Source: a candidate division FCPU426 bacterium (lineage in GTDB: Bacteria > Oederibacteriota > PGYV01 > Palsa-1178). From it: 64,000 bases of DNA. The notes under the pieces were generated by a model. The model did not search any database, was not told the DNA's origin, and saw only the letters and a program-made list of their open reading frames with translations. Every line of letters begins with the position of its first letter. The stretch's first letter is position 1. The stretch is from contig CAWIXE010000002.1 of the NCBI GenBank assembly GCA_963840035.1, positions 544,001-608,000 on the forward strand, written 5' to 3'. The translations under genes were made by a program, and so were the position numbers. Positions 47,936 through 64,000 of the stretch are shown in pieces.

Positions 47936-48053
47936 AGTATAAAAAAATCCAAAAATAAATTAGGATAATGCTTGACTTATTATACAAAATGTAGTATAAA
48001 CTATACATAAAGATTATCTTATACATCTAAAATTAATAAAAGGAGGCAAAATA

Positions 48054-48296
48054 GTGGGAAAACTGGAACCAAAGCTGAAAATTGTAAGCCGGCTGCACAT
48101 ATTGCGCGCTGAAAAACGGCTTTCCCAGGATGACCTGGCTAAGGCAATAGATGTTACACGGGGGACTATAGTCGCGATCGAAGGCGGGGATTATAACCCG
48201 TCGCTTGAGCTGGCTTTCAGGCTTGCGAGATATTTCAATACGGATATACACTCGATATTTCAAATAGAGGAGGGGAATGATGCAAAAAATAAATAA
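48054..48296 (+). CDS. XRE-family HTH regulator
   Basis: LSQDDLA...TIVAIEGGDYNPSLELA. Confidence 0.9.
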   Translation: MGKLEPKLKIVSRLHILRAEKRLSQDDLAKAIDVTRGTIVAIEGGDYNPSLELAFRLARYFNTDIHSIFQIEEGNDAKNK

Positions 48297-48891
48297 GTTC
48301 CTGCTTAAGTATCTTGTATACGCAATACCGTTCCACGTAATCCTGCTGATATGGGGTCTGCTGGCTTCTAAATTTGAATTTTTAAAGGGAATAAAACCCC
48401 TTGCCGCGGCCATGGATATACTTCCGTGGAATTTTATTGCCTGGCTGATTGTTCTTGTATTTGTCCTTGCGGAACTTTTGTGGTACCCGGACATGCAGAG
48501 GCGGTTTTTTGAGTCGGCAGCAAAATTCGCGGGAGTTAAGGAAAGGGATGAGAGGGAAAGTCTGGCAATTGACAGGGCGGGCAGGTACGCGTATATTTCA
48601 ACGTTGTGCCTCCTTATAGTTATGCTCTGTTTTTATTCCATCAATGTAACAATCGGCAATATCCCGCCGGATAAAGTCGTAGACGGGAAACACAGGTACA
48701 TAACTGTCGGCATCGGTATCGCCGTTACTGATGACAAACCGGTTGTTAAAAATGATAATTACATAAAGACATTTTCTAACTGGGACCTTCCGCTTTCAAA
48801 ATGGAGCCTTATATTTCTTGTCATAGCATGGCACGTGCTCAGCTTTCTATATTACCTGAGGAAAACTGATAAGTATAACCTGGAAAAATAG
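48277..48891 (+). CDS. Hypothetical membrane protein (DERE motif, DUF2178-like)
   Basis: TM segments and ERDERE...A; coupled to the XRE gene. Confidence 0.7.
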   Translation: MMQKINKFLLKYLVYAIPFHVILLIWGLLASKFEFLKGIKPLAAAMDILPWNFIAWLIVLVFVLAELLWYPDMQRRFFESAAKFAGVKERDERESLAIDRAGRYAYISTLCLLIVMLCFYSINVTIGNIPPDKVVDGKHRYITVGIGIAVTDDKPVVKNDNYIKTFSNWDLPLSKWSLIFLVIAWHVLSFLYYLRKTDKYNLEK

Positions 48892-48934
48892 CGGCCTGAT
48901 TGCCGTTCTATAATAAATTTTTAAGGAGGATGTT

Positions 48935-49558
48935 ATGGCAGAAGTAATTAAGAATCTCGCGATAGTGGGTGACGTATGGGTGCTCTATATACTCATAATT
49001 GCCAGTATAGCAAGCGTGGCAATCATGGTGGAGCGCTGGATGGTATACCGTGCAAATAAAGGGGACATATCCGCGTTCATGGACAGCCTCGCGGAAAAAC
49101 TTGATAAAAAAGACATAAAAGGCGCCATAGAGCTTGCGAATAAATCCTCGCGCATTGAGGCAAAGGTCGCTTTAGAGGGGCTGAGTAATGTGAAAAAAGG
49201 GCCGGCGTCTGTCGAGGAAGTCATGACATCAAGGTGGCTCAGGGAGAAAATTAAGCTGGAAAAGAACCTTGTCATACTCGCGACCATGGGCAACAACGCC
49301 CCGTTTGTGGGGCTCTTTGGAACGGTACTCGGCATAATCAAGGCTTTTAATGACCTGGCGCTTACAGGCCAGTCAGGAATAGCCGTTGTCATGTCAGGCA
49401 TATCGTCGGCATTGATTGCCACGGCGCTTGGCATACTTGTGGCAATACCTGCTGTTATCGCGAATAATTATTTCGCGTCCAGCTTAAGGCAGGCGCAGTC
49501 CAACAGCGAAAGCTTAACGCATATCATAATGGCGTTTTTAAAGGAAACGGGTAAATAG
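48935..49558 (+). CDS. exbB: MotA/TolQ/ExbB proton channel
   Basis: APFVGLFGTVLGI and ALIATALG motifs. Confidence 0.9.
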   Translation: MAEVIKNLAIVGDVWVLYILIIASIASVAIMVERWMVYRANKGDISAFMDSLAEKLDKKDIKGAIELANKSSRIEAKVALEGLSNVKKGPASVEEVMTSRWLREKIKLEKNLVILATMGNNAPFVGLFGTVLGIIKAFNDLALTGQSGIAVVMSGISSALIATALGILVAIPAVIANNYFASSLRQAQSNSESLTHIIMAFLKETGK

Positions 49559-49560
49559 CC

Positions 49561-49959
49561 ATGAAATTTGACGATGAACAGATGATAGTCTCCGGAATAA
49601 ATGTAACGCCGCTGGTGGATATCACGCTTGTGTTGCTGATCATATTCATGGTCACCGCCACATTTGTAAGCGAACGCGCCATGGAAGTAAACATCCCAAA
49701 AAGCGCGACAAAGGAAAACGCGCCGACGCCCGCCATATCGGTTACGCTTGGCAAAGACGGAACGCTGAAGATCATGAAGAAATCAGTTACGCTTGAGCAG
49801 TTAAGCGTGCTGCTTGCCAATGAGGTAAAGGCGTTTCCTGATGAGAAGGTGCTTTTAAAGGCTGAAAAGGACCTGCCGTACTATAAGGTGGCGGAAGTAC
49901 TTGAAGCGATTAAACTGGCCGGGATTAAAAAAGTGGCCCTGGCAATGGAAAGAAAATGA
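49561..49959 (+). CDS. exbD: ExbD/TolR protein
   Basis: INVTPLVDITLVLLIIFMV. Confidence 0.92.
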   Translation: MKFDDEQMIVSGINVTPLVDITLVLLIIFMVTATFVSERAMEVNIPKSATKENAPTPAISVTLGKDGTLKIMKKSVTLEQLSVLLANEVKAFPDEKVLLKAEKDLPYYKVAEVLEAIKLAGIKKVALAMERK

Positions 49960-50567
49960 GGCTCCTAAAGGGTTTTACAGCGTCCATACTTATACATGTA
50001 TTCATTTTTTTATCATGCTATTACATGATTATATGGTGGAAAAATTCGGATTTGTCGGCCGTTGATATTGACCTGACATCGTCGACCCTTATGCTGCGGC
50101 CTTCAAAAGCAACAGCCAAATCCGCGCAGCCGGAGATTACGGTTCAGGATTGGTATTTAAGCGACAGCAAACAGCTGCCGCCCAAACCTGTGTTAACATC
50201 CCAAACAGAAGCTGCTGAGCAGCCTGCCATAGCAGAGTGCCCGGCGCCGTGTCCGGATAATACTTCTGACTGGGCAACGGCAGGATCCACTACGCGAAGG
50301 CCGGTGTGGTCAGAAGGGTTTATAACTGAGGACGACTATCCCAAAGAAGCAAGGGCGCAGGGGCGTGAAGGAAAAGTTAAAGTCGAAGTTTTTATAGACG
50401 CGACAGGCAGGGTGCGGGACGCGAGGGTAATTGAGTCAACGGACGGAAGGTTCACCGCGGTCGTACTTGACAAACTTAAAAAAGCGAAGTTTGAACCGGC
50501 GCTTGATAAATCCGGAAATCCTGTAGCTGTGCATATGGCCATGCCTATAGTGTTTGAACTACGATGA
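49956..50567 (+). CDS. tonB: Energy transducer TonB
   Basis: TM segment with SxxxH; YPKEARAQGREGKV...FEPA C-domain. Confidence 0.88.
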   Translation: MRLLKGFTASILIHVFIFLSCYYMIIWWKNSDLSAVDIDLTSSTLMLRPSKATAKSAQPEITVQDWYLSDSKQLPPKPVLTSQTEAAEQPAIAECPAPCPDNTSDWATAGSTTRRPVWSEGFITEDDYPKEARAQGREGKVKVEVFIDATGRVRDARVIESTDGRFTAVVLDKLKKAKFEPALDKSGNPVAVHMAMPIVFELR

Positions 50568-50583
50568 ATATGAGGACGGTAAA

Positions 50584-52831
50584 ATGAGAAAAAAATTCAG
50601 GTTAAAGATCGCGTTTATAATTGTAATAATTTCATTTGCAGCTGTTTTAAACGCTGCCACCGCAAGTGCCGGAGTAACAGTTACGGCAAATGCCGCTATA
50701 TCCGGAAAGGTGATGGTGCTTGGCGCTTCGGATGCCATTGAAGGGGCCATTATCAGCTTAAACGGGGTGACTCAGAGCGCTGCAGTTACCGGACCGGACG
50801 GAAAGTACAGGTTTGAGCTGGCGACAGGGACAGCGGATGTCCGATGCACAGCCTATGGCTTTCAGGAAAGGGCGTTTCACACGGTTGTGGAGCCGGGCAA
50901 TGAATATGAAATGAATGTTTACCTGGACAGGGTGGATTTCATTTCTGACGCGGTGGTAGTGCGCGCAAAAAAAGATAAAAACGAAGTTATAAAAACAACG
51001 ATTGAGCGGGCGCAGCTTAAGAAAATTCCCGGGACTGCCGGCGACGCGCTCCGCGCGGTGCAGTCCATGCCGGGAGTCGCAGTAATGAGCGACTATTCAA
51101 GCGGGCTTGCCGTACAGGGAGGAGGCCCCGGGGACAATATGTATCTTTTAGACGGAATTCCGTGGCCTTATCCATTTCATTTTGGCGGGCTGCTTTCAAC
51201 GGTTTACTCAGGCCTGCTTTCATCCGTTGACCTGAACACGGCCGGATTTGGCGCGCAGTGGGGAAATATAATGGGCGCGGTGCTTGACGCAAAGACCAGG
51301 CCGGGCGCCAAAGACAGGTTCAGGGGTGATATAGACATAAGCATCATAACTTCACAGGCTCTTTTTGAGGCGCCTATCGGCCTGGGTGACGCTTCTGTTG
51401 CCGTATATGGCAGGAGAAGCTATATTGACCTTATTATCGGACAGGCAATGAAAACAGAAGGGTTTACAGCCTTCCCGTTTTTCTGGGATATTGGAGGGTC
51501 TCTTGATTTTACCCTGGGCAAGGACAACCATTTTAAAGCCATAGCACTTGCCACCGACGACATGCTAAAAATGTACGTGGACCCGGCGGAGAATACAGCA
51601 AGTTCCTATACCGGCGATTTTTCCATGGACAACGGCGCTTTTACGGGAGGCGCGAGCTGGTCAAATACATCTTTATCCGGACTTACATCGAAATTAACGG
51701 CATATTACTATAATCTTTTTGAAAAATCCGTTATTGGAAAAGATTTTAACATAAATTTGGGGCAGTCGGATTTCGGGCTAAAAGAAGAACTTGAATGGGA
51801 TGCGGGAAGTTTTATGGGGGTTGGGCATGCGATAGGGTTCGGCGCTGACGTGCAGCGCATACATGATGAGGCTGTTGTGAATCTTGCTTTTGACATAATC
51901 CACCATACAGCTGACCCGACTTCGACAAAAGTTGACGGCTGGCACACAAACCGCGGAGGATATCTGCAGGACAGGATGCGGCTGCTGCCCGGCCTTGACC
52001 TGACTGCCGGCATCCGGTATGACAAAAATGACAAAGTGGGGCGCGACACAACGCTTCCAAGAATATCACTTTCATGGCAGAGCGATGAAAAGACTCTCTG
52101 GAAGGCGGCGTGGGGAATTTACAGCCAGTTTCCGACAGATGTGCAGCTGAAATAACGTTTTCGGAAACCCGGCGCTTACCGCCAATATGGCTCAGCATGC
52201 CGTTTTCAGCGTGGAGAGAAAACTGACCAATGAGATTACAGCAAGGCTTGACGGGTATTATAAGTATTATACCGGCCTGGTGGGAAGCGATCCTGACACG
52301 GGCATGTATGACAATAATACTTCAGGAAGCGCGAAAGGCGCGGAAATATTCATAAAAGCGGATTATGGCGAAAAATTTTTCGCGTGGATATCATATGCGC
52401 TCTCAAAATCCGAGCGTTTAAAACCGTCGTTTGATAAGTGGGTGGCATACCAGTATGACCAGACTAATTTGCTCACGGCCGTGGCGAGCTATGGCATAAC
52501 GCCGGCGTGGTCAATAGGCGCAAAGCTGCATTACAATTCAGGCCCGCTTGTTAAAAAATTGCTGGGCAGTTATAAGGATGTAAATGACGAATGGCACGGC
52601 ATATTCTCTGATAATTATGACAAAAGGCTGGATGACTATTTAAGGCTGGATGTAAGGACGGATTATGCCTTCCGTTTTGAAGGCTGGAAGTTGAACATTT
52701 ATGTGGAACTGTTGAATGTATTAAACAGGAAAAATCCGAACCAGATAATGTATTCGGATGACTACAGCGAATCGCAGACAGTTAATAACCTGCCGTTTAT
52801 CCCGTATCTGGGGGTGGAGGCGGAATGGTGA
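50584..52831 (+). pseudogene. TonB-dependent receptor with a 1-nt frameshift at about 52150-52152
   Basis: Carboxypeptidase-like N-domain, plug (IPGTAGDALRAVQSMPGV) and barrel ending in W; removing one A in CTGAAATAA gives VQLNNVFGNPALTANMAQH and joins the two ORFs. Confidence 0.85.
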
Positions 52832-52885
52832 TAAACACAATTGAGGATTTACAATTGACGATTGTCGATTCTTGCGTGCGGAGTG

Positions 52886-52974
52886 GTAGCCGCAGCCTCC
52901 ATGTCCGTTGTAGCTTTCGCGGAGACGGATTAGGCTGCGTAACGGGGTACCGTAACCGGAAGGTTTGCGACTAC
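52886..52974. repeat. GTAGCCGCA-type REP pair, first copy with a 31-nt nested insert
   Basis: GTAGCCGCAGCCT[insert 52899-52929]TTAGGCTGCG, then an inverted degenerate copy ending GCGACTAC. Confidence 0.78.
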
Positions 52975-53006
52975 GAACGTAATTGTTTTCAATAAGGAGG
53001 TTAAAA

Positions 53007-53429
53007 ATGGACAACAGGTCATGGTGTGTTCCGTTAATACTTGTATTACTTCTTCTTATATTTCAGGGTTGTGCGGCTGCTGTTATAATGTCTGACGTTA
53101 AGACTGAAAAAACACCGGCTGCCGCCGGAGCGCAGATAAAACAGGAGCCGCTCCTTGATTCAGGGGCCATAGTAGTCAGGGCAAAAAGGCTTACAAGGCT
53201 CGAACGCAAGAAAAAGGAGGCTATAAGGATTAATAACAGGGATACATACGCCGTTTTGTTCGGAACTGCCGGAGCGCTGACGGCTTATACCGCGATGAAC
53301 GTTTATTACGCATCCAGAAATGAGCAGGGAAATCCTCTGGTGACATTTTGCGCTGTGGGAGCGGCGGCATATGCGGTAACAGCAATAGCAAACCTTATTT
53401 ATGATCTATTTGACGCTAAATTAAAATGA
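53007..53429 (+). CDS. Hypothetical lipoprotein/membrane protein
   Basis: AAGGAGG RBS; lipobox-like FQGC; two C-terminal hydrophobic helices. Confidence 0.72.
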   Translation: MDNRSWCVPLILVLLLLIFQGCAAAVIMSDVKTEKTPAAAGAQIKQEPLLDSGAIVVRAKRLTRLERKKKEAIRINNRDTYAVLFGTAGALTAYTAMNVYYASRNEQGNPLVTFCAVGAAAYAVTAIANLIYDLFDAKLK

Positions 53430-53539
53430 TTGATTCAGGTTGTATGCTGGCGTAAATAATGTTAAAATTTTATCTTCGTGAACGGGGTGATGCCTGTTTA
53501 ATGAAATATCTTCGTAAAATACACCGTAAAGAGGAATAA

Positions 53540-55144
53540 ATGAGCGTTTTAGATGAAATAAAAAAGAGAAAAACATTTGCAATCATAAGCCATCCTGACG
53601 CGGGTAAGACCACGCTTACGGAGAAATTTCTTTTGTTTGCCGACGCCATTCAGATGGCGGGAGCTGTTAAATCCAGCAAAATAAAGAAAACAACGGTCTC
53701 TGACTTCATGGAAATCGAGCGTCAGAGGGGCATATCCGTAACTTCGGCTGTCATGAGTTTTGAATACGGCGGCATGAAGATAAACCTGCTGGATACACCC
53801 GGCCATAAGGACTTTGCGGAAGACACATACAGGACCTTAACCGCCGTGGACAGCGTAATACTTGTTGTCGACAGCGTAAAGGGCGTGGAAGAGCAGACTG
53901 AAAAGCTCATGAATGTCTGCAGGATGCGCAATACGCCTGTAATGATATTTGTGAACAAACTTGACCGCGAGGGCAAAAATCCCATAGACCTGCTTGACGA
54001 ACTGGAAGACAAACTCAGCATCAAAACAACCCCGATGAGCTGGCCCATCAGCAGGGGCGCTTCTTTTAAAGGCGTATACCATTTATATAAAAGAGACCTT
54101 CATATTTTCAGGCCGCATGGAAAAGCTGACAGCGAAGAAACCCTTAAAGTAACCGATATAAAAAGCCCTGTAATAGATGAACATACAGGGGCGGACCTCG
54201 CGGCACAGCTGCGTGAAGATGTGGCTTTGGTGGACGGCGTATATCCGCCCTTTAACAGGGAATCGTATCTGTCCGGACATCAGGCGCCGGTGTTTTTTGG
54301 CAGCGCGCTGAATAATTTCGGGGTAAGGGAACTGCTTGAGACGTTTGTGGAGCTTGCTCCCGGGCCCGGCAGCATGGAGTCGGATATAAGAATGATAAAA
54401 CCCGAGGAGGAAACCTTCAGCGGGTTTGTATTCAAGATTCACGCCAATATAGACCCCAGGCACAGGGACAGGATAGCTTTCTTAAGGATTTGTTCGGGCA
54501 GGTTTGAGCGCAACAAGTTCTACCACCATGTGCGCCTGAATTCTGACGTGCGTTTTTCAAACCCAGCCAGTTTTCTCGGGCAGAAAAAGGATGTCATAGA
54601 CGAGGCTTTTCCCGGGGATGTCATAGGTTTATACGACAGGGATAAATTTAAGATAGGCGACACTATTACTGAAGGCGAAAATATCATGTTCAAGGGCATA
54701 CCTAAATTTTCACCCGAGATATTTAAAGAACTTGTGCATACTTCGCTTAAGGCAAAACAGCTAGAAAAAGGAATAAGGCAGCTGACAGATGAGGGCGTAG
54801 CACAGCTGTTTTTAATGAAAAATGACAATAAAAAAATCGTTGGAACCGTAGGCCAGCTTCAGTTTGACGTCATCCAGTACAGGCTGAAAAATGAATACGG
54901 CGCTGACTGCCGTTTTGAGCCGATAAACGCTAAAAAGGCATGCTGGTTCAAGTCGGATAACAAGGTTAAAATGGAAGAGTTCTGCCAGTACAAAGCAGAC
55001 AGGATAGGGTACGATAACGAGGAAAATCTGGTGTTCTTTGCCGAGTCGGAATGGGACCTGGGGTATTACGTTAAGAAATACCCGGAAATAAAATTTTATT
55101 TTACATCAGAGTTTAAGGATGAAACAGAAGTAAAAGCGTATTAA
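53540..55144 (+). CDS. prfC: Peptide chain release factor 3
   Basis: [25 protein letters not shown] and VGQLQFDV motifs. Confidence 0.97.
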
Positions 55145-55231
55145 ATACGAGAAAAATCACGTCGCATTCACAATCTGTTTAAAAATACATTTTTAACATT
55201 ATATTATTTTTATAGGTGTGGTTTTGTTTTC

Positions 55232-55361
55232 GTAGGGGCGAGCCGGTGGCTCGCCCGGCCTTAGATTGTAATGCCGTGTCCATGCGAAATCCATAATTCA
55301 ACTCCTGTTTATACCCCGAGTCTAAGATCTAAAACCGGGCGAGCCACCGGCTCGCCCCTAC
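55232..55361. repeat. Inverted pair of family-A REPs
   Basis: 55232-55258 (+) and 55335-55361 (-). Confidence 0.9.
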
Positions 55362-55458
55362 GAAAACTTGAGCCTTTAACCACCCGCAATTTACCGCGCC
55401 CACTTGAGCCTTGGGCCTCCCAATCCTGCATATCTACAAATTATTGTTAAAATTATGC

Positions 55459-55500
55459 TTGACAAATATGTGATTACATTGTATGCTTTTAGTAATTACA
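55459..55500 (+). promoter_or_regulatory. Promoter with two GTRATTAC palindromic operator candidates
   Basis: TTGACA-17-TATGCT; TGTGATTACA (55469-55478) and AGTAATTACA (55491-55500). Confidence 0.68.
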
Positions 55501-55517
55501 GAATAAAGGAGGGTATT

Positions 55518-55931
55518 ATGAGACAGCAGGTTATTGACATTGGTAATTCGAAAGGCATCAGGATCCCGCAGGCTATTTTAAAACAGGTGGATTTCGGCGG
55601 GGAAATTGACATGGATGTATCGGACGGCAAGATTGTTTTGCGCAGGACGGTTAATAAGGATCAGGTTTTTGGTTTTGAGACGCTGTCCGAGATGGACGAC
55701 GCCAGCATCAAGAGGATGATAAAAAAGGTGAACACTTCTGACCTGGTTATCTCCTTAATTGACGCGGACAAGATGACTAAAGAGGCGGTTTACCGTAACT
55801 TATCAGAACCGGTAAAAGAGCACGTAAAAGTACGGGTCCACAAGCTGGAAAAGGGAAATGCCCGCGACCTCATCATTGAGAGAAGCAGAAACATGGTCAG
55901 CGAAGCGTTTGTGGAACTGCTGCGCGATTAA
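55518..55931 (+). CDS. AbrB/MazE-type DNA-binding domain fused to a FliG C-terminal-like domain
   Basis: IGNSKGIRIP (AbrB/MazE); FGFETLSEMDDASIKRMIKKV...DLVISL...VYRNLS (FliG_C pattern); AAGGAGG RBS. Confidence 0.75.
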   Translation: MRQQVIDIGNSKGIRIPQAILKQVDFGGEIDMDVSDGKIVLRRTVNKDQVFGFETLSEMDDASIKRMIKKVNTSDLVISLIDADKMTKEAVYRNLSEPVKEHVKVRVHKLEKGNARDLIIERSRNMVSEAFVELLRD

Positions 55932-55972
55932 TCAGTATTTTTGTAATTTAAAAGCGATCATAAGGAGAATAT

Positions 55973-56323
55973 ATGCATCAAATGTCTGATGTGATAAGTA
56001 CGGGTAAAATCCACCAATACTTTTTATTGCATAAAAAAAGAAAGGTCCTGAATGATGTGGACTGGACTGAGGCATTTGAATCACTCGGACATATGAGTTC
56101 CGCCGGTATTAAGGAAGTGTTGGAAAAAGTTGGTTTTGATGACATAATAATCGCTCTTGCCGGAACCACGCCTGCCGTTAAGGAGACTATCCTGGCACAA
56201 ATGCCTGACCGCTTAAGGCACGTAGCAGGGACTTGCGCATCCAGTATAGCTTTTTGTGATATTCCAAAAAAAACCATAATAAAGAGCATGCGCGTGGTGG
56301 TAGACGCGATGCTGTCAGCCTGA
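55973..56323 (+). CDS. Small FliG C-terminal-like protein
   Basis: FESLGHMSSAGIKEVLEKV...DIIIALAG...VKETILAQMPDR; AAGGAG RBS. Confidence 0.62.
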   Translation: MHQMSDVISTGKIHQYFLLHKKRKVLNDVDWTEAFESLGHMSSAGIKEVLEKVGFDDIIIALAGTTPAVKETILAQMPDRLRHVAGTCASSIAFCDIPKKTIIKSMRVVVDAMLSA

Positions 56324-56423
56324 AATATATAACCGTAAAACAAATTCCCGCACGCTCGAATCTCATAAAATCATAATTCGTACCCACGGCGTTACGCCAT
56401 AAGTGTCAGCGTCCTCAAACTGT

Positions 56424-56456
56424 TTCACAAATTGGGGTCTGACCCCGATTTGTGAA
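56424..56456. repeat. Palindrome with GGGGTCTGACCCC core
   Basis: TTCACAAATTGGGGTC-T-GACCCCGATTTGTGAA. Confidence 0.75.
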
Positions 56457-56497
56457 TTAGAACCGGGGCCGCACTTACTATACATCCAATAATTATG

Positions 56498-56526
56498 TTG
56501 ACACCCCATAATACTTCTTATAAAAT
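56498..56526 (+). promoter_or_regulatory. Sigma70-type promoter of the xylose genes
   Basis: TTGACA-17-TAAAAT. Confidence 0.7.
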
Positions 56527-56553
56527 TGTATGTATATTAATACGGAGGTACAC

Positions 56554-58041
56554 GTGAACCTAATCGGATATGATATTGGAAGTTCATCAATAAAAGGGAC
56601 TATCATTAACGCGCAGACCGGTAAAGTCATTGCGTCAGCGTTTTATCCCCATAAGGAAATGGAGATAATAGCAAAAAAGGCCGGATGGGCCGAGCAGGAC
56701 CCGGAACTCTGGTGGAAAAATCTCATATTAGTTACTTCCGCGCTGAAGAAAAAGGCGGGAAACGCCCTGAAAGAAATAAAGGCAGTCGGCATATCCTATC
56801 AAATGCATGGCCTGGTATGCGTTGATAAAAATCAAAAACCCTTAAGGCCTTCCATAATTTGGTGCGACAGCAGGGCGGTCATGCTTGGCGATAAAGCCGC
56901 TAAAAAAATTGGGGAAAATACATCCTTAAAACACCACTTAAACCTTCCCGGTAATTTTACCGCGGCAAAGCTAGCCTGGGTGAAGGAAAACAAACCCGCG
57001 ATTTATAATAAAATTTACAAAGTAATGCTGCCCGGGGATTATATTGCCATGAAGTTAAGCGGGGGCATAGCGACCAGCGACTCGGGGTTATCGGAAGGCA
57101 TATTCTGGGATTATCAGAAATCCGCTCCTTCAAAACTTATCCTTAGCGCGTTTGGAATTGATGAAAAGCTGCTCGCTGATTACGCGCCATGTTTTTCAAT
57201 ACGCGGTGAAGTATCCCGCGAAGCGTCTGCCGCGCTTGGAATCCCCGCCGGAGCCAAAATATCGTACAGGTCCGGGGACCAGCCCAATAACGCGTTTTCG
57301 CTAAACGTCCTTGAGCCCGGAGAACTTGCCGCGACCGCCGGGACATCGGGTGTTGTTTACGGCGTCTCGGATAAGCCTTCATATGACATTAAATCAAGGG
57401 TCAATACTTTTATACATGTAAATAATTCCAAGGGATATCCCAGATACGGAACACTGATGTGTTTAAACGGAACGGGAATACTTAACAGCTGGATGAAAAA
57501 GAACGTGGCAGGCGGGATTGATTACCCGGAAATGAACACTCTCGCCGCGGGTGTAAAGCCCGGTTCTGAAGGTGTTTTTATACATCCTTACGGCAACGGA
57601 GCTGAGAGGACGCTGGAAAACATGTGTCCCGGCGCGTCAATCACCGGATTAAGCCTGACAACGCATACGAAGGCGCACCTTATGAGGGCGTCGCAGGAAG
57701 GCATAGTATACGCGCTGAACTATGGCGTCGGCATCATGAAACAGATGGGGATAAAAGTGAAAAAGGTCAGGGCCGGTAACGCGAACATGTTCTTAAGCCC
57801 TGTATTCAGGGAAATATTCGCAGCGGTAACAGGCGCTGTAGTGGAACTTTACGACACTGACGGGTCGCAGGGCGCGGCGCGCGGCGCGGGAATTGGCGCG
57901 GGTATATATAAGGACAACAAAGACGCTTTTACCGGGCTTAAGGCGCTGAAAGTGATAACACCGGATAAGAAACTTGTAAAGTTTTATTCCGGGGCTTACG
58001 CGCGCTGGAAAGAAATGCTTGAGGATATGAAAAAGGCTTAA
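56554..58041 (+). CDS. xylB: FGGY-family sugar kinase, probably xylulokinase
   Basis: GYDIGSSSIK, AEQDP, QMHG, IIWCDSR, GDQ and AGTSGV motifs; GTG start after GGAGG. Confidence 0.85.
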   Translation: MNLIGYDIGSSSIKGTIINAQTGKVIASAFYPHKEMEIIAKKAGWAEQDPELWWKNLILVTSALKKKAGNALKEIKAVGISYQMHGLVCVDKNQKPLRPSIIWCDSRAVMLGDKAAKKIGENTSLKHHLNLPGNFTAAKLAWVKENKPAIYNKIYKVMLPGDYIAMKLSGGIATSDSGLSEGIFWDYQKSAPSKLILSAFGIDEKLLADYAPCFSIRGEVSREASAALGIPAGAKISYRSGDQPNNAFSLNVLEPGELAATAGTSGVVYGVSDKPSYDIKSRVNTFIHVNNSKGYPRYGTLMCLNGTGILNSWMKKNVAGGIDYPEMNTLAAGVKPGSEGVFIHPYGNGAERTLENMCPGASITGLSLTTHTKAHLMRASQEGIVYALNYGVGIMKQMGIKVKKVRAGNANMFLSPVFREIFAAVTGAVVELYDTDGSQGAARGAGIGAGIYKDNKDAFTGLKALKVITPDKKLVKFYSGAYARWKEMLEDMKKA

Positions 58042-58065
58042 ATGCCAAAATAACAGGAGGATGAA

Positions 58066-59190
58066 ATGGAAAAGAGTTTTCATTCAATTTGTAAGTGGAC
58101 TTTTAACGCGGGCAAAGGCGGTTTCGTGCCAAACAATATGAGGCCGGAATGGTCGGGAGATAACCTGGATACCGTGGGCATCATAAAAATCATAAAAGAC
58201 AAAGTGGCGCCAAGGCTTCCGAATAACGTCGTGCTTGGTTTTGAGGCGCATTACGACGGCGAATATAATGAAGACAACGCGGCTGATATAGCGGACGCGC
58301 TTGTTGACGCGGGAATGTACCTGGCTATGGCTACTCCGGGAGCTCACAGCAGGTTCGCGTACGGCGGGATATCGTCGCTTGACGCAAATGAAAGGGCGCG
58401 CGCGTGTGAGTTCGGGGAAAGATCGTTAAAACTGGTGTACGGCCCGCTTAAAAAAGCATGGCACCCGAAAAAGCAGCCTACGTTTGTCCTGTGGAACGGT
58501 TCTTTTGGATACGATGTAGCCACAGTGGGCATAGGGCGCATGTATAAGTATTTAAAGGAAAATGTGGCGGGACTCTGCAAGCTTGAAAAGAAATTAGGCG
58601 GCAAGATGATGCTGGCAATAGAGCCAAAACCAAACGAAGGCCATCCTGCTATGCTTCTGCCAACAGTGGCAAGCGCGATAATTTTCTGGAAAAAACTCGG
58701 AGAGGAATTCGGAATTGACGTAAAGCGCACCGGGGTTAACAAGGAATTCGGCCACTCGGAAATGATAGGCCTGGACCATGTTTATGATACAGTGGAGGAA
58801 ATAGACAATTCCATGCTTGTACACATGCACTTAAACAGCCAGGGTTATAACGACGGCATAATCATGGGCGGACCGGGAAAGTATGACATAGACAACGGAG
58901 CCAGGATTAACGGCATGAACATAGCCATTGCCGGGCTCATACAGGACGCCGGATATTCAAGGTGGAAGGGCCATGACATGCAGCCGCGCGCGTATGATAA
59001 TGAGGAGCAGGCCATAGACAGGGTTGTGCGCTCAGTCCTTTCGTGGGAAGCGTGCGAAACAGCAGCCAGGAATATTGATTACAAGAATCTTAATAAAGCG
59101 CTCAATAACCGCGAAACAGCAAAAGCTGAGGATGTCATGAGGCACGCGGTAGTCGACGCGCAGAAAATATTTGACCGGCTTTACAAGTAG
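58066..59190 (+). CDS. Xylose isomerase-family protein
   Basis: WTF, EPKPNE, NKEFGH, HLNSQ and YDID motifs; adjacent to xylB. Confidence 0.8.
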   Translation: MEKSFHSICKWTFNAGKGGFVPNNMRPEWSGDNLDTVGIIKIIKDKVAPRLPNNVVLGFEAHYDGEYNEDNAADIADALVDAGMYLAMATPGAHSRFAYGGISSLDANERARACEFGERSLKLVYGPLKKAWHPKKQPTFVLWNGSFGYDVATVGIGRMYKYLKENVAGLCKLEKKLGGKMMLAIEPKPNEGHPAMLLPTVASAIIFWKKLGEEFGIDVKRTGVNKEFGHSEMIGLDHVYDTVEEIDNSMLVHMHLNSQGYNDGIIMGGPGKYDIDNGARINGMNIAIAGLIQDAGYSRWKGHDMQPRAYDNEEQAIDRVVRSVLSWEACETAARNIDYKNLNKALNNRETAKAEDVMRHAVVDAQKIFDRLYK

Positions 59191-59197
59191 GCCCCGG

Positions 59198-60649
59198 ATG
59201 ATAAAAAAACTGGCGGTATTGGCTCTACTTGCCGGGGCGTTGGCCATGATTTTAGGATGCGCCGTCCCAATAACCATTAAAGAGGTAAAACCTGTGACTG
59301 ATGGGCCTGTAAAACCGCTTGAAGAATTACAGAGGGATTTCGCGGAACTGCGTTATGGTATGTTCATTCATTTTGGCATACTGACATACACGGGTTCCTG
59401 GTCGCAGAAAAACCTTGATATCAGCAAATTCAACCCGGAAAACCTTGACTGCGGCCAGTGGGCTTACGCGGCAAAAGCAGGGGGCATGAAGTTCGGCGTG
59501 CTCACAACAAAACATCACGACGGTTTCGCGCTATGGCCTACACAAACAAGCGATTTTTCCGTTAAGGCAATCCCGTGGCGCGGCGGCAAGGGCGACGTGG
59601 TCAGGGAGTTTGTGGACGCGTTCAGGGCAAAAGGCCTCCAGCCGGGATTATATTACTCGGTATGGGATAATACAAAGGGAATCGGCAACAAGCCGGTTAC
59701 CGAAGCTGACATAGAGTACGTCGAAGAACAGCTTAAAGAACTGCTGACAAATTACGGGCCAATTCCGTTGCTCGTCCTTGACGGTTATTCCTGGAAAATG
59801 GGGCACAAAGCAATACCATACGACAGGCTCAGGGCGTTCATCAAGTCGCTGCAGCCAAACTGCCTCGTAATAGACCACACGCATCTGCAGTGCCTGTATG
59901 ACAATGACCTTGCTGTGTTTGAAGAGCCCAAAGGGGTCTTCGCGCCAAAAGGTAACAAAGTGGCATCGGCGCAGGACCAAAAAATCATCGGCGGCAATGA
60001 CTGGTTCTGGGGGCCGTCGACCGAAATGGAAAATCCGATGAGTTTAAAGGACCTGGTTGAAGGCCACCTGATACCGCTTGAGGAAAGATACGCGGTATTC
60101 ATATTAAACTGCCCGCCGAACAGGCAAGGGCTGATGGATGGCAAGATAGTTACAAGGCTTGCTGAAGCAGGCGCAAAATGGAAACCCAATATGAAAAGAA
60201 AACCGCTGCCAGCGCAGGGCCCGCAGAACGAACTGCCTGTTACGCCCGAGAGCGCCGCGGCCACAAGCGGGAACGCGTCATTTGCCATAGACGCTATAAA
60301 CGATTCGTATTTCTATTCAGTCTGGGAATCAGACAAACAGCTCCCGCAGTCGATTACTTTAGACCTGGGAAAATCATATCCTGACATAGGGGTGCTGTGT
60401 TATGTGCCAAAGTACATAACAGTGGAGAAACCCACTGACGAAGGTGCCATAACTTCCTATGAAATATCGGTAAGCGTTGACAATGCTGATTTCAAGAAGG
60501 TGGCTGCAGGCAAATGGGCCGCTGATTCAGCCATGAAAACCGTTGCTTTTGGGGCAGTGCAGGCAAGGTATGTAAGGCTTACCGCTGTTTCCGCCAAAGA
60601 TGGTTTCGCCGCGGCTACGGAAATCAGCGTCGGCAGGGCAATGAAATAG
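59198..60649 (+). CDS. GH29 alpha-L-fucosidase lipoprotein with C-terminal F5/8 (CBM32-like) domain
   Basis: GMFIHFG, TTKHHDGFALW and GLYYSVWD; ITLDLG and ARYVRL; lipobox ILGC. Confidence 0.88.
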   Translation: MIKKLAVLALLAGALAMILGCAVPITIKEVKPVTDGPVKPLEELQRDFAELRYGMFIHFGILTYTGSWSQKNLDISKFNPENLDCGQWAYAAKAGGMKFGVLTTKHHDGFALWPTQTSDFSVKAIPWRGGKGDVVREFVDAFRAKGLQPGLYYSVWDNTKGIGNKPVTEADIEYVEEQLKELLTNYGPIPLLVLDGYSWKMGHKAIPYDRLRAFIKSLQPNCLVIDHTHLQCLYDNDLAVFEEPKGVFAPKGNKVASAQDQKIIGGNDWFWGPSTEMENPMSLKDLVEGHLIPLEERYAVFILNCPPNRQGLMDGKIVTRLAEAGAKWKPNMKRKPLPAQGPQNELPVTPESAAATSGNASFAIDAINDSYFYSVWESDKQLPQSITLDLGKSYPDIGVLCYVPKYITVEKPTDEGAITSYEISVSVDNADFKKVAAGKWAADSAMKTVAFGAVQARYVRLTAVSAKDGFAAATEISVGRAMK

Positions 60650-60686
60650 AATTCGGATAATTTATGGGGGTTGTTTCATAAAACGG

Positions 60687-60714
60687 TTGACTTAAAAGGC
60701 TTTTTCAGTATAAT
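60687..60714 (+). promoter_or_regulatory. Sigma70-type promoter
   Basis: TTGACT-16-TATAAT. Confidence 0.6.
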
Positions 60715-60795
60715 TAGTGTAATTAGGGTTCACGTTTACCCTGAATGATGAAACGTATAAAAGAAAGATATTCTATTAAATTTAAGGAGGATAAG

Positions 60796-61434
60796 ATGAA
60801 AAAAGTTTTAACGGTTTTTGCAGTATGTGTAATTGTTCTTGTTCTGGGTTTTTCAGTAGGATGCAAAAAAGCGGCAACAAGCAACCCGACACCGGAACCC
60901 ACGCCGGTACCGACAGTTGTATTAGAAGATTTTGCGACAGCAGACCTGGGAACCAACGCGTTTAACGGCGCGTGGTTCGGTTACAGCAAGTTTGATACGA
61001 ACAAAACAGACGATCCTTATGGTTTTGGCGTACTGGCGCCCGGATATGATTTCACCGGATATGCCGCGTACCTTACAGCAACCGTTGGAACAGTTTTAGG
61101 AGCTTATGGCGTGTGGTTTGGCTGCAATGTGTCATCAACCGCCTCGGCAAATATTTCACAATATACCGGGATAAAGTTCTACGTAAAAGAGTCTGGCGGA
61201 GCAAACTGTAAGATTTCGGTCCTATCGGACCTGACATCAAAAAATTACCAGTATACATTTACAACTACGTCAAACTGGGCGCTTGTGACTGTCCCGTTCT
61301 CTTCGTTGACTCAGGAAACCACGGATTCGGTGACAATCAATGATGTGCTCGGTACGGCAACAAGGATACTCTGGTCGAATGGTACAAAACCCCAGACACT
61401 TTATCTCTATCTGGATCAAATTGTACTCTATTAA
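60796..61434 (+). CDS. Lipoprotein with Pro/Thr linker and CBM11/CIA30-like domain
   Basis: Lipobox SVGC, PTPEPTPVPT linker, ISQYTGIKFYVK, WALVTVPFSSL and LYLDQI. Confidence 0.72.
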   Translation: MKKVLTVFAVCVIVLVLGFSVGCKKAATSNPTPEPTPVPTVVLEDFATADLGTNAFNGAWFGYSKFDTNKTDDPYGFGVLAPGYDFTGYAAYLTATVGTVLGAYGVWFGCNVSSTASANISQYTGIKFYVKESGGANCKISVLSDLTSKNYQYTFTTTSNWALVTVPFSSLTQETTDSVTINDVLGTATRILWSNGTKPQTLYLYLDQIVLY

Positions 61435-61442
61435 AATGTGAT

Positions 61443-61473
61443 AAAGCGGGGAGCTGAAAAGCTCCCCGCTTTA
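61443..61473 (+). terminator. Intrinsic terminator-like hairpin
   Basis: AAAGCGGGGAGC-TGAAAA-GCTCCCCGCTTT. Confidence 0.75.
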
Positions 61474-61488
61474 ATTTTTGGAGGGATA

Positions 61489-62790
61489 ATGAAAAAAATA
61501 ACCGCAATCATAATACCGGCCTTAATTACTGCCCTGCTTTTATCCGCGTGCGCGAAGAAACAGGAAAAGATACGCGTCATGCACTGGGGCGATGTCATAG
61601 AAATGGGCAACGTCAATACCATAATAAAAGATATTAAAAAAACAAAAGGCATCGATGTTATCCAGGAACGCGCGCCGGCCGGCAACTCTTATATGGAAAA
61701 AATACTCACACAGGCGGCCGCGGGCATGGCGCCTGATATTGTTTTTGTTGAAGTAAGCAATTTTAAGGACCTCTACGACAGGGGGCTGCTGCTTGACCTC
61801 GGGCCTTTCATGGAAAAAGACGCCGCTAAAGAGCTTGACCTGAAGGCGTATTACCCGGAAATAGTGGACAGGTTCACCATTGATAATAAATTATACGTAA
61901 TACCCAGGGACATAGCGCCGATATGCGTTATATATTACAACAAGAAAGTATTTAATGACGCGGGAATCAAATATCCCAAAGACAACTGGAACTGGGCTGA
62001 ATTCCTCGATACCGCAACAAAACTGGTAAAAAAGGAAGGCAATAAAATTACACGCTATGGCTTCCTTGATGAGTGGACCATATGGGACGCCTGGGTATAT
62101 TCTAACGGAGGCGCGCTGGTGGACAATGTAAAAAAACCCACGAAGTGCGTCCTTGATTCGCCTGAGGCAATAGAGGGCATGCAGTTCAGGGCAGACCTTT
62201 CATATAAGTATAAGGTCGCGCCTGAACCCTCGGTAGTGGCGCAGTCATCGCAGGGATGGTACGGGACAGCGGGCATGTTCGTAAACGGACAGGTCGGCAT
62301 GTTTTATACCGGCTACTGGAAATCAAGCTTTTTCAGACAGCAGCAGGACCTGGACTGGGATATTGTGATGTTCCCGAAAGGTCCAAAAGGCAAAAGGGCC
62401 TTCCCGACAGGCGGTTCAGGATATGCCATAACAAGCCAGTGCAAGAATCCCGCGGCAGCCTGGGAAGTATTGAAAAAACTCGCGGGCGAAGAGGGGCAGA
62501 AGGTGCTCGCAAGCCAGGGCGGCCTGCAGCCCGCGATAATCAAGCTGGCTGAATCAAAGCAGTTTATGGATGATAATAAACCGGTAAATAAGAAGATAAT
62601 GCTTGAGGCTGTAAAATACATAGTATTCAGCCCGCTTTTAAAGACGTGGGACGAGATAAACATAGCCCAGCTCGGGCCTGTCCTTGACGACGTATGGAGC
62701 GGCAAATCAACGGCTGAAAAGGCGATGAAAAAAATAGTGCCGAAGATAAATAAGGAATTTTTTCCCGTTAAAAAAGAAGAGAAAAAATAA
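61489..62790 (+). CDS. Sugar ABC transporter substrate-binding lipoprotein
   Basis: Lipobox LSAC, APDIV, IYYNKKVF and WNWAEF motifs. Confidence 0.9.
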   Translation: MKKITAIIIPALITALLLSACAKKQEKIRVMHWGDVIEMGNVNTIIKDIKKTKGIDVIQERAPAGNSYMEKILTQAAAGMAPDIVFVEVSNFKDLYDRGLLLDLGPFMEKDAAKELDLKAYYPEIVDRFTIDNKLYVIPRDIAPICVIYYNKKVFNDAGIKYPKDNWNWAEFLDTATKLVKKEGNKITRYGFLDEWTIWDAWVYSNGGALVDNVKKPTKCVLDSPEAIEGMQFRADLSYKYKVAPEPSVVAQSSQGWYGTAGMFVNGQVGMFYTGYWKSSFFRQQQDLDWDIVMFPKGPKGKRAFPTGGSGYAITSQCKNPAAAWEVLKKLAGEEGQKVLASQGGLQPAIIKLAESKQFMDDNKPVNKKIMLEAVKYIVFSPLLKTWDEINIAQLGPVLDDVWSGKSTAEKAMKKIVPKINKEFFPVKKEEKK

Positions 62791-62831
62791 GCCGTTTTAA
62801 AATTCGACACCACTTTGAGGGAAGGAATTTA

Positions 62832-64000
62832 ATGACAAATACGGTTCTCTTTGCGCGTGCTGCCGCAGGCGGTATGAAAAGAACGGCAGGCAAAATGTTT
62901 ATGGCGTTGTTCTTATTTGCGGTTTTTGCTGTCGGCGTTTTTGCGGCTCCTGCTGCGGGAAATAATGAAGAGCGTATTTTCGTATCCCAGAAGGACGCGC
63001 TGTATAATGATCTTTCAACACTTGCCGGGGCAGGGCTTATTAAGTCAAAAGACGCTGATTATTTTCTGTATAATCCCATAACAAAAAAACAGGCCGCCGG
63101 GTTTATAATTGAGGCGCGTTATTACCTGGGGGTAACACGTCCGGCTGAAGACGCCGTTGATGAAAAGAAATTTACGAAAGTCATCAATTCCTGCGCTTCC
63201 GGATTACAGGAAGAAATAAAATCAGCGCCGGCATTTGCCGTTGTTGCTGTAAATGAATCTGAAGCGCAAAGCCGGCTTGATGGAGTTGAGGCGGCGATAA
63301 GCGACGCTGAAAGCGCCCGTAACGAAACGTTCTTTAACTCCGGTTCGTCCCTGAAAATCGAGGGCATAATAAGCGCTAAATACACGGACCTTGGAGCTTA
63401 TGGCGTATGCCCGTTCAACCATTCGGCTTTTACCGGCACATATATGCAGCTGCTGATCTCAAAAAGCTTTTCAAGCGACCTGTCCTTAAGCATGTACTTA
63501 AACCTTGAACCGCGTTACAACGACCCTGTCATAGGCACAGCATATCCCGATTTTTTTACTCCGTCAAATATTATGGACAATTTCTCCATGAGCTTAAACG
63601 CGGGCCCGTGGAAAATAAGCGGCGGGACCATCTGGGAGGATATTACTTCCTTTATCGCCTCGCAGGGGCCTTCAGACAGGCCCTGGATATTTGAACGCGA
63701 CCAGCTGGCGGCCGATGAAAAGGCAAAGGACCATTACGAGACCATTTTCCGCAATTATTTTCAGTCCCTGGATGACAGGTGGTCAAAACACCCGTGGATG
63801 GGGCTCGAAGTATTTAATGACAAACTCTTCGGCAGGGACCAGCTGAAACTCATGGCCGGAAAGGCCAATAACTTTTATACCAATTATTTATATGAGTTCG
63901 GCGCGCGCTATACCAGGCGCCAGGATATACTCTTTTTTTCCGCGGCTGAATGGTCGGCAAATTTCTATAACACTTCAAACCAGAAAGCTGAAGCGTTTGC
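62832..64000 (+). CDS. Exported protein with SLH-like N-domain and probable beta-barrel (3' truncated)
   Basis: ATG after AAGGA; signal peptide; DALYNDLSTLAGAGLI...PITKKQAA SLH-like pattern; helical linker then a beta-rich region; appears open to the window end. Confidence 0.6.
   Translation, partial: MTNTVLFARAAAGGMKRTAGKMFMALFLFAVFAVGVFAAPAAGNNEERIFVSQKDALYNDLSTLAGAGLIKSKDADYFLYNPITKKQAAGFIIEARYYLGVTRPAEDAVDEKKFTKVINSCASGLQEEIKSAPAFAVVAVNESEAQSRLDGVEAAISDAESARNETFFNSGSSLKIEGIISAKYTDLGAYGVCPFNHSAFTGTYMQLLISKSFSSDLSLSMYLNLEPRYNDPVIGTAYPDFFTPSNIMDNFSMSLNAGPWKISGGTIWEDITSFIASQGPSDRPWIFERDQLAADEKAKDHYETIFRNYFQSLDDRWSKHPWMGLEVFNDKLFGRDQLKLMAGKANNFYTNYLYEFGARYTRRQDILFFSAAEWSANFYNTSNQKAEAF

Follow-up and report, generated by a model that had tools for sequence, protein, structure and literature searches.

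An operon in a 64,000-nucleotide stretch of DNA from a candidate division FCPU426 bacterium (the window) encodes a predicted regulator that joins the DNA-binding domain of a MazE-type antitoxin to the C-terminal helical bundle of the flagellar rotor protein FliG. Judging from the sequence of gene 1 and its operator, this regulator is very probably a toxin-free autorepressor. Its FliG-derived helical domain probably serves as a surface for oligomerization or partner binding, and gene 2, which encodes such a domain without the DNA-binding part, is put forward somewhat tentatively as a titrator. As a whole, a MazE-type/FliG-bundle autorepressor with domain-linked dimers and gene 2 as titrator is our best overall explanation, to which we give an even chance.

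The fusion family is real and, as a regulator family, apparently undescribed: no description of it was found in a literature search of main texts covering few subscription journals, so that the undescribed regulatory module proposed by an earlier, sequence-only reading of the operon is borne out. The operon suggests the reuse of a motor part as a regulatory module and points to a role outside the motor for the FliG torque domain, a domain that the literature consulted treats as motor-dedicated. It would also be a clean case of a toxin-free regulator derived from an antitoxin, its promoter still attached and intermediate forms visible in the tree.

Operon layout and operator

Along the stretch, prfC (encoding RF3) is followed by a REP-like inverted pair, the promoter, genes 1 and 2, a hairpin and a sugar-kinase gene (Table 1).

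Table 1. Features of the operon and its flanks (window coordinates; nt, nucleotides; aa, amino acids).
Feature	Position	Strand	Description
REP-like inverted pair after prfC	55226-55367	.	flanking only, outside the module
Sigma-70-type promoter	55459-55487	+	TTGACA-17-TATGCT, 10/12 matches; same layout upstream of homologues
Operator site 1	55470-55477	.	GTGATTAC; in -35/-10 spacer; one mismatch from palindrome; family consensus GTAATTAC
Degenerate middle site	55481-55488	.	GTATGCTT; spaced 11 bp from both outer sites, overlaps -10 box
Operator site 2	55492-55499	.	GTAATTAC; perfect palindrome, 22 bp after site 1, over likely transcription start
Ribosome-binding site of gene 1	55506-55512	+	AAGGAGG (from sequence)
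Gene 1 (P0001)	55518-55931	+	137 aa; AbrB/MazE DNA-binding domain (~1-44) and FliG C1-6 (FliG-CC) helical bundle (~48-137)
Ribosome-binding site of gene 2	55962-55967	+	AAGGAG (from sequence), inside the 41-nt gap after gene 1
Gene 2 (P0002)	55973-56323	+	116 aa; FliG-CC domain, short eroded N-terminus
Hairpin 3' of gene 2	56424-56456	.	single-copy palindrome, 16-bp arms, without U-tail

The two palindromic sites that the sequence-only reading had seen overlapping the promoter are indeed a conserved pair. Two sites 22 bp apart, with up to 3 mismatches, were found in 29 of the 36 upstream regions examined, whereas only 2 of the 2297 upstream regions used as a control from this genome have such a pair. 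This spacing of GTAATTAC sites is characteristic of the fusion, being present at 41 of 55 non-redundant fusion loci and at 2 of 42 plain mazE loci, whereas the 11-bp spacing occurs at 17/55 fusion loci and 32/42 plain mazE loci; one locus (L064) has too little upstream DNA for this comparison. The middle site, whose commonest sequence in the family is GTATACTT, may owe its sequence to the -10 box and not to binding. The predicted palindromic operator lies over the operon's own promoter, as in type II toxin-antitoxin systems.

With an operator matrix built without the window, the gene 1 promoter scored 33.8; elsewhere in the genome the best site reached 15.6, and within the flagellar cluster scores stayed at or below -2.0. 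The search for a wider regulon found no second operator in the genome and none upstream of the stand-alone FliG-domain gene at G000:C2:279384, and the carrier loci showed no further operator at a score above 18. Since the operator is unique in the genome by matrix score, the regulon appears to be the operon itself.

Downstream, the region around the hairpin (56416-56470) has a folding energy of -24.5 kcal/mol and the hairpin is a possible transcript end. The sequence-only reading had placed the unit between a REP pair and another palindrome; both are present and the palindrome is single-copy, but the REP pair is a generic repeat with 77 arm copies across the genome, and as a boundary of a mobile unit it was rejected for this reason. 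Elsewhere, the REP arms also form three direct copies spaced 62 bp at G000:C2:571757-571905. For an opposite-strand open reading frame of 121 aa that overlaps gene 2, Pfam gave no match. At 56498-59190 of the window, a strong promoter (11/12 matches) stands ahead of the FGGY kinase gene and a gene for a 374-aa protein without Pfam match, which presumably resembles a divergent xylose-isomerase-type enzyme. No flagellar genes were seen among the open reading frames of 48000-64000, in line with the sequence-only reading, and full FliG is encoded ~430-470 kb from the operon in a basal-body, hook and motor cluster.

A MazE-type regulator family without adjacent MazF

The C-terminal part of gene 1 had been read as FliG_C-like, and residues 47-118 match Pfam FliG_C above the cut-off (E 5.4e-10). 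For the N-terminus, which had been called a clear AbrB/MazE domain, the assignment of origin holds and the match is weaker by profile than "clear" implies: residues 8-44 match Pfam MazE_antitoxin at E 0.0018 and 18.7 bits, below the cut-off of 24.7, with further matches to the NCBIfam MazE model (E 2.7e-4), to MazE structures (E ~0.009) and to plain MazE-type antitoxins, mostly ~82 aa long, at 45 genome loci. In the structure model, the AbrB part consists of three strands and one helix at low confidence (pLDDT 54-67, monomer) and had no fold-search match. For the C-terminus the model gives six helices (pLDDT 76-92), and on this prediction gene 1 lacks the unstructured toxin-neutralising tail of an antitoxin.

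MazF is missing as well. This toxin (PemK/MazF) adjoins plain mazE in 40 of the 45 loci, 42 next genes having been scanned, and a MazF profile built from 16 of these toxins found no match at the 77 fusion loci or in this genome. A Pfam scan of 34 downstream proteins, the sole check of other toxin folds, revealed no toxin family. With gene 2 falling among the duplicates of gene 1 (see below), the toxin-antitoxin pair suggested by the sequence-only reading is not upheld.

A word-indexed search returned 316 homologues of gene 1, and at least 120 of them are 136-159 aa long and 54-100% identical at a query coverage of at least 97%. Near-full-length matches made up 35 of the best 80 genome loci and 41 of the best 80 metagenome loci. 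The 35 carrier genomes belong mostly to Spirochaetota, besides Goldiibacteriota, two Bacillota, one Ignavibacteriales and one Ozemobacteraceae, and the fusion is a small gene family of Goldbacteria and free-living spirochaetes without adjacent MazF. In the order of the host, the fusion is present in 8 out of 24 genomes, and among 13 loci compared flanking genes are common to only a few close pairs; the fusion therefore moves like a small cassette, of which phage and plasmid collections held no match. No longer fusion proteins built on gene 1 (260-2000 aa) appeared at E 1e-8 among 7996 candidates, which is weak evidence.

The AbrB/MazE N-terminus is the best-conserved part of the family (pN 0.03-0.10 against pS 0.54-0.76 in four pairs), and a motif LExG[DN]ARDLIIERSRN is specific to the family and sets it apart from FliG. 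The ESM Atlas contains one automatic cluster of 73 members with the same two Pfam names and without a named function. Automatic annotation calls many of the family's genes "FliG" or "antitoxin MazE", labels that inflate flagellar and toxin-antitoxin counts in metagenomes. One regulator gene (L074:5001-5409) is frameshifted, maybe through an assembly error, and was left out of the tree.

For a census of downstream genes, 57 of the 77 loci were kept after removal of those more than 90% identical, and 52 of these offer 400 nt or more of downstream sequence; part of the material for the profiles came from the loci being counted. Across these 52 loci, the counts were 20 for a 122-aa ankyrin protein, 14 for FliG-domain-only proteins, 8 each for a ~130-aa predicted membrane protein and a dienelactone hydrolase, and 13 for loci with none of the four. 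A fixed two-gene unit, as the sequence-only reading would have it, is not what the survey found, since any FliG-domain-only neighbour is present in just 14/52 loci. A frameshifted small FliG-domain gene directly after the regulator in L052, maybe again an assembly error, was not counted. The membrane-protein family (L045:5449-5832, L046:4502-4882, L048:5234-5644 and L057:5707-6111) comprises hydrophobic proteins of 127-137 aa, and three that were scanned have no Pfam match. A PADLOC run gave a weak DrmC match (E 0.003) and generic ankyrin matches, which were dismissed.

The helical domain as the torque bundle of FliG

A comparison of the predicted folds with known structures returned FliG as the best match for both proteins, at an identity of ~20-28%. 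Over 61 residues the gene 1 model superposed with an rmsd of 1.2 A (Z 9.4), its last helix not docked as in FliG; for the gene 2 model the match to FliG C1-6 extended over 82 residues with an rmsd of 1.4 A (Z 13.3). The second-best match was the cytoplasmic domain of MgtE (Z 7.4 for gene 1 and 6.0 for gene 2). For gene 2, which had also been read as FliG_C-like, residues 34-82 match Pfam FliG_C above the cut-off (E 2.2e-7) and the model reaches a pLDDT of ~90 over residues 31-116.

Neither protein fits the description of a FliG rotor protein, since they have 137 and 116 aa in place of ~330 aa with N, M and C domains and the EHPQ motif, and they score 37.5 (gene 1) and 16.9 bits (gene 2) against the TIGR00207 cut-off of 226.7. 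In FliG, ARM-M (D116-L166) and ARM-C (E197-F237) precede the MFXF hinge, which C1-6 follows (PMC4642947), and the ARMs have been described to drive domain-swap oligomers (PMC11853002). The structural alignments of both proteins begin at 3HJL 237/238, after the hinge and at the end of ARM-C; one alignment row (8umd) reaches upstream through the low-confidence residues 19-32 of gene 2. The shared module is therefore the torque bundle and not the stacking unit of FliG, and stacking through ARM motifs, which the sequence-only reading had invoked, finds no counterpart in proteins that align solely to the C1-6 bundle. While they share the C1-6 fold with FliG, both proteins are without FliG-N, FliG-M and ARM-C, MFXF is down to one conserved Phe, and the acidic torque residues are lost. 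FliG_M was found in this genome solely in the true fliG gene.

Torque residues were numbered from an alignment with Salmonella FliG and included K264 and D288 as further charged torque residues. R281 and D289 contact MotA (PMC6680979). At positions 264/281/288/289, gene 1 has I/P/V/R and gene 2 has A/R/T/C. Among 72 family members, an acidic residue occupies the D289 position in 1 and the D288 position in 3, with mostly Lys, Thr or Arg at the former, while the K264 position is Val or Ile in 70 and the R281 position Arg in 49; R281 and both acidic positions are kept in 12/12 FliG controls. An action on the stator in the manner of FliG is thus not supported, given the non-acidic D288 and D289 positions in both proteins and in nearly all of the family. 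Positions charged in FliG are hydrophobic in the regulators (81, 132 and 135) and in the duplicates (126/132/135), with the alignment of the last helix maybe out of register.

Wider non-motor use of the bundle is supported by its other contexts. It also occurs as solo proteins of 80-135 aa, and among 28 longer profile matches that were scanned it stands with an ECF sigma factor (P0271; three copies), with an adenylate/guanylate cyclase domain (P0234) or as tandem repeats. P0271, P0234, P0144, P0175, P0241, P0174 and P0188 comprise these fusions of the FliG C-terminal bundle and the tandem repeats, the latter without FliG-M.

Gene 2 and the domain-only paralogues

In a word-indexed search, gene 2 was itself alone among 6 candidates, and its relatives came from a profile search. 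Over 80 residues, gene 2 shares 36% identity with P0160, a member of a protein series whose N-termini show stepwise erosion of the AbrB domain. In a tree of 76 rows, gene 2 groups with 14 further domain-only paralogues inside the main regulator clade (100/99) and has the longest branch overall (2.03). A tree of 34 rows agrees on this placement, with weak support for the whole duplicate clade (68/75), and AU tests on groups named after the first tree reject gene 2 with FliG (p 0.006) or with an older small family (p 0.002). By these phylogenies, gene 2 likely arose as a tandem duplicate of gene 1 and shed the DNA-binding domain.

In two other duplicate pairs, the helical domain shows a pN of 0.25-0.29 against saturated pS and the N-terminus a pN of 0.35-0.43. 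Given this N-terminal value, which compares with 0.03-0.10 in the regulators, and the lower helical pN, the duplicates are kept for the helical domain; for gene 2 itself, which is 25% identical to the single duplicate compared at the DNA level, selection is poorly measurable. Tandem duplicates are found in 5/52 loci and in 3 of the 8 carriers of the host's order. Together with an older spirochaete family of 82-90 aa, domain-only partners arose twice and are present in 14/52 operons. Their repeated origin favours a role for them, and most loci manage without: a titrator is not required because 38/52 loci have no domain-only neighbour and 13 lack all four common neighbours.

At L124:1327-2210, two successive diverged duplicates of different sub-branches (by sequence) stand behind one regulator. 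Far from the operon, at G000:C2:279384-279632, the host genome encodes on its own an 82-aa FliG-domain protein of the older small family; its gene has no operator and could act in trans, and similar solo FliG-domain matches are found in G002:C60 and G006:C69.

Proposed origin and mechanism

We propose that the fusion goes back to a mazE gene which retained its promoter and N-terminal domain and had its toxin-binding tail replaced by the C1-6 bundle of FliG, and that mazF was lost. AbrB-fold dimers bound to two GTAATTAC sites, two helical turns apart, would block RNA polymerase. The helical bundles would bridge these dimers and thereby take over the toxin's job in MazEF and VapBC; such bridging would account for the change of spacing from 11 to 22 bp and fits extra hydrophobic residues on the last helix (whose alignment is uncertain). 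Domain-only partners, be it gene 2 or members of the older 82-90 aa spirochaete family, would mix into the oligomer and change the repression of the short operon. The signal would be expected to come from a protein partner (a co-encoded ankyrin or domain-only protein) or from a stress ligand, rather than from the stator. A broader version, in which the torque bundle is a free-standing signalling module whose copies bind each other, so that solo ones switch fused regulators, replaces the toxin as the bridge of mazEF, affords conditional cooperativity without a toxin and possibly takes input from motor components, is speculative and probably goes too far.

The closest known system is mazEF of E. 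coli (PF04014, PF02452), which has in MazE an AbrB-fold N-terminus like the one predicted here and a palindromic operator over its own promoter; the nearest plain mazE relatives share the GTAATTAC site with the fusion family. Unlike mazEF, the fusion has a tail predicted as a folded helical bundle instead of a disordered toxin-binding one, no MazF was found, the neighbours are variable non-toxin genes, and the main site spacing is 22 bp, not 11 bp. SpoVT (with a GAF domain) and AbrB are toxin-free swapped-hairpin regulators with a C-terminal oligomerization or sensor domain, a layout that the fusion may share. By comparison, the effector domain of gene 1 comes from a motor protein and the regulon is apparently its own operon, as far as this genome is concerned. 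E. coli MazE is described to autorepress through a three-site "cab" operator with MazF raising its affinity (PMC4333400), and in VapBC of Shigella flexneri toxin-bridged AbrB-type dimers occupy two operator sites over the -35 and -10 boxes (PMC3384007). There the PIN toxin is the bridge, whereas here the fused domain would play this part. For gene 2 we propose the logic of microProteins, single-domain paralogues that bind and tune multi-domain relatives in plants and animals (PMC9638782), with the gene 1 protein as its predicted binding partner. These proposals are directly testable, in a small system whose operator is defined to the base and which has a carrier in a named, cultured-type species, Sporosalibacterium faouarense (L071).

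Alternative explanations and flagellar context

The FliG-derived domain might instead sense a small molecule, a metal or stress and free a local detoxification or stress operon, with gene 2 as cargo. This is compatible with the first half of our best explanation and draws on neighbours such as the dienelactone hydrolase (8/52 loci), a metallo-beta-lactamase-fold protein, a methyltransferase, and CNNM and YbjQ proteins, on the MgtE cytoplasmic domain as the next fold match after FliG, and on proteins in which the domain accompanies an ECF sigma factor or a cyclase domain. We nevertheless consider it unlikely, with no Cys/His cluster in the invariant columns of 32 aligned members and with protein-interaction modules (ankyrin in 20/52, domain-only in 14/52) as the commonest neighbours. 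Alternatively, gene 2 could be a decaying duplicate without a regulatory role, leaving gene 1 alone to matter; its long branch, the rarity of duplicates and the progressive loss of the N-terminus across their group would agree with this. Yet its frame is open behind its own AAGGAG, its model is well folded, two other duplicate pairs show purifying selection and one locus (L124) retains two diverged duplicates, so we see little probability in decay. A genuine type II toxin-antitoxin pair, gene 2 being the toxin (a motor poison, for instance) and gene 1 neutralising it through FliG-type stacking, is the reading in which we place hardly any belief: gene order, a mazE-type promoter and the unrelated flanks of most Goldbacteria carriers compared, as in mobile toxin-antitoxin cassettes, speak for it, against a gene 2 that clusters with gene 1 duplicates, no fixed partner over 52 loci, absent stacking parts (ARM-C/ARM-M) and a 41-nt gap where mazEF controls mostly overlap.

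It is also conceivable, if improbable, that the domain binds a free MotA stator or a FliG-binding brake (YcgR) and couples the state of the motor to transcription. A flagellar marker is present in 34 of the 35 carrier genomes, the R281 position is Arg in most members, and deep-branching members from Bacillota and Ozemobacteraceae have a more FliG-like torque helix; moreover, YcgR is described to target the C1-6 bundle of FliG (PMC4642947). The co-occurrence with flagella says little because these are near-universal in the lineages concerned, and of the 22 genomes of the order that have FliG, only 8 carry the module. Further points against a motor sensor are the near-absence of acidic residues at D288 and D289 and the Val or Ile at K264 noted above, a flagellar cluster without the operator, no flagellar gene among the neighbours scanned, and a carrier (G045) without a match to FliG, flagellin, FlhA or FliM, in a possibly incomplete assembly.

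The flagellar cluster of the host genome (G000:C2:1039075-1071591) comprises basal-body, hook, motor and FliA genes, and the genome has five chemoreceptor matches and no match to flagellin, FlgL or FliD. A link between the fusion and flagellin loss was considered and rejected: flagellin is absent in 8/8 carriers of the order and in 12/16 non-carriers, but present in 28/35 carriers overall. Across the 24 genomes of the order, FliG is found in 22 and flagellin in 4, and the genomes that carry a second, divergent FliG are those same 4.
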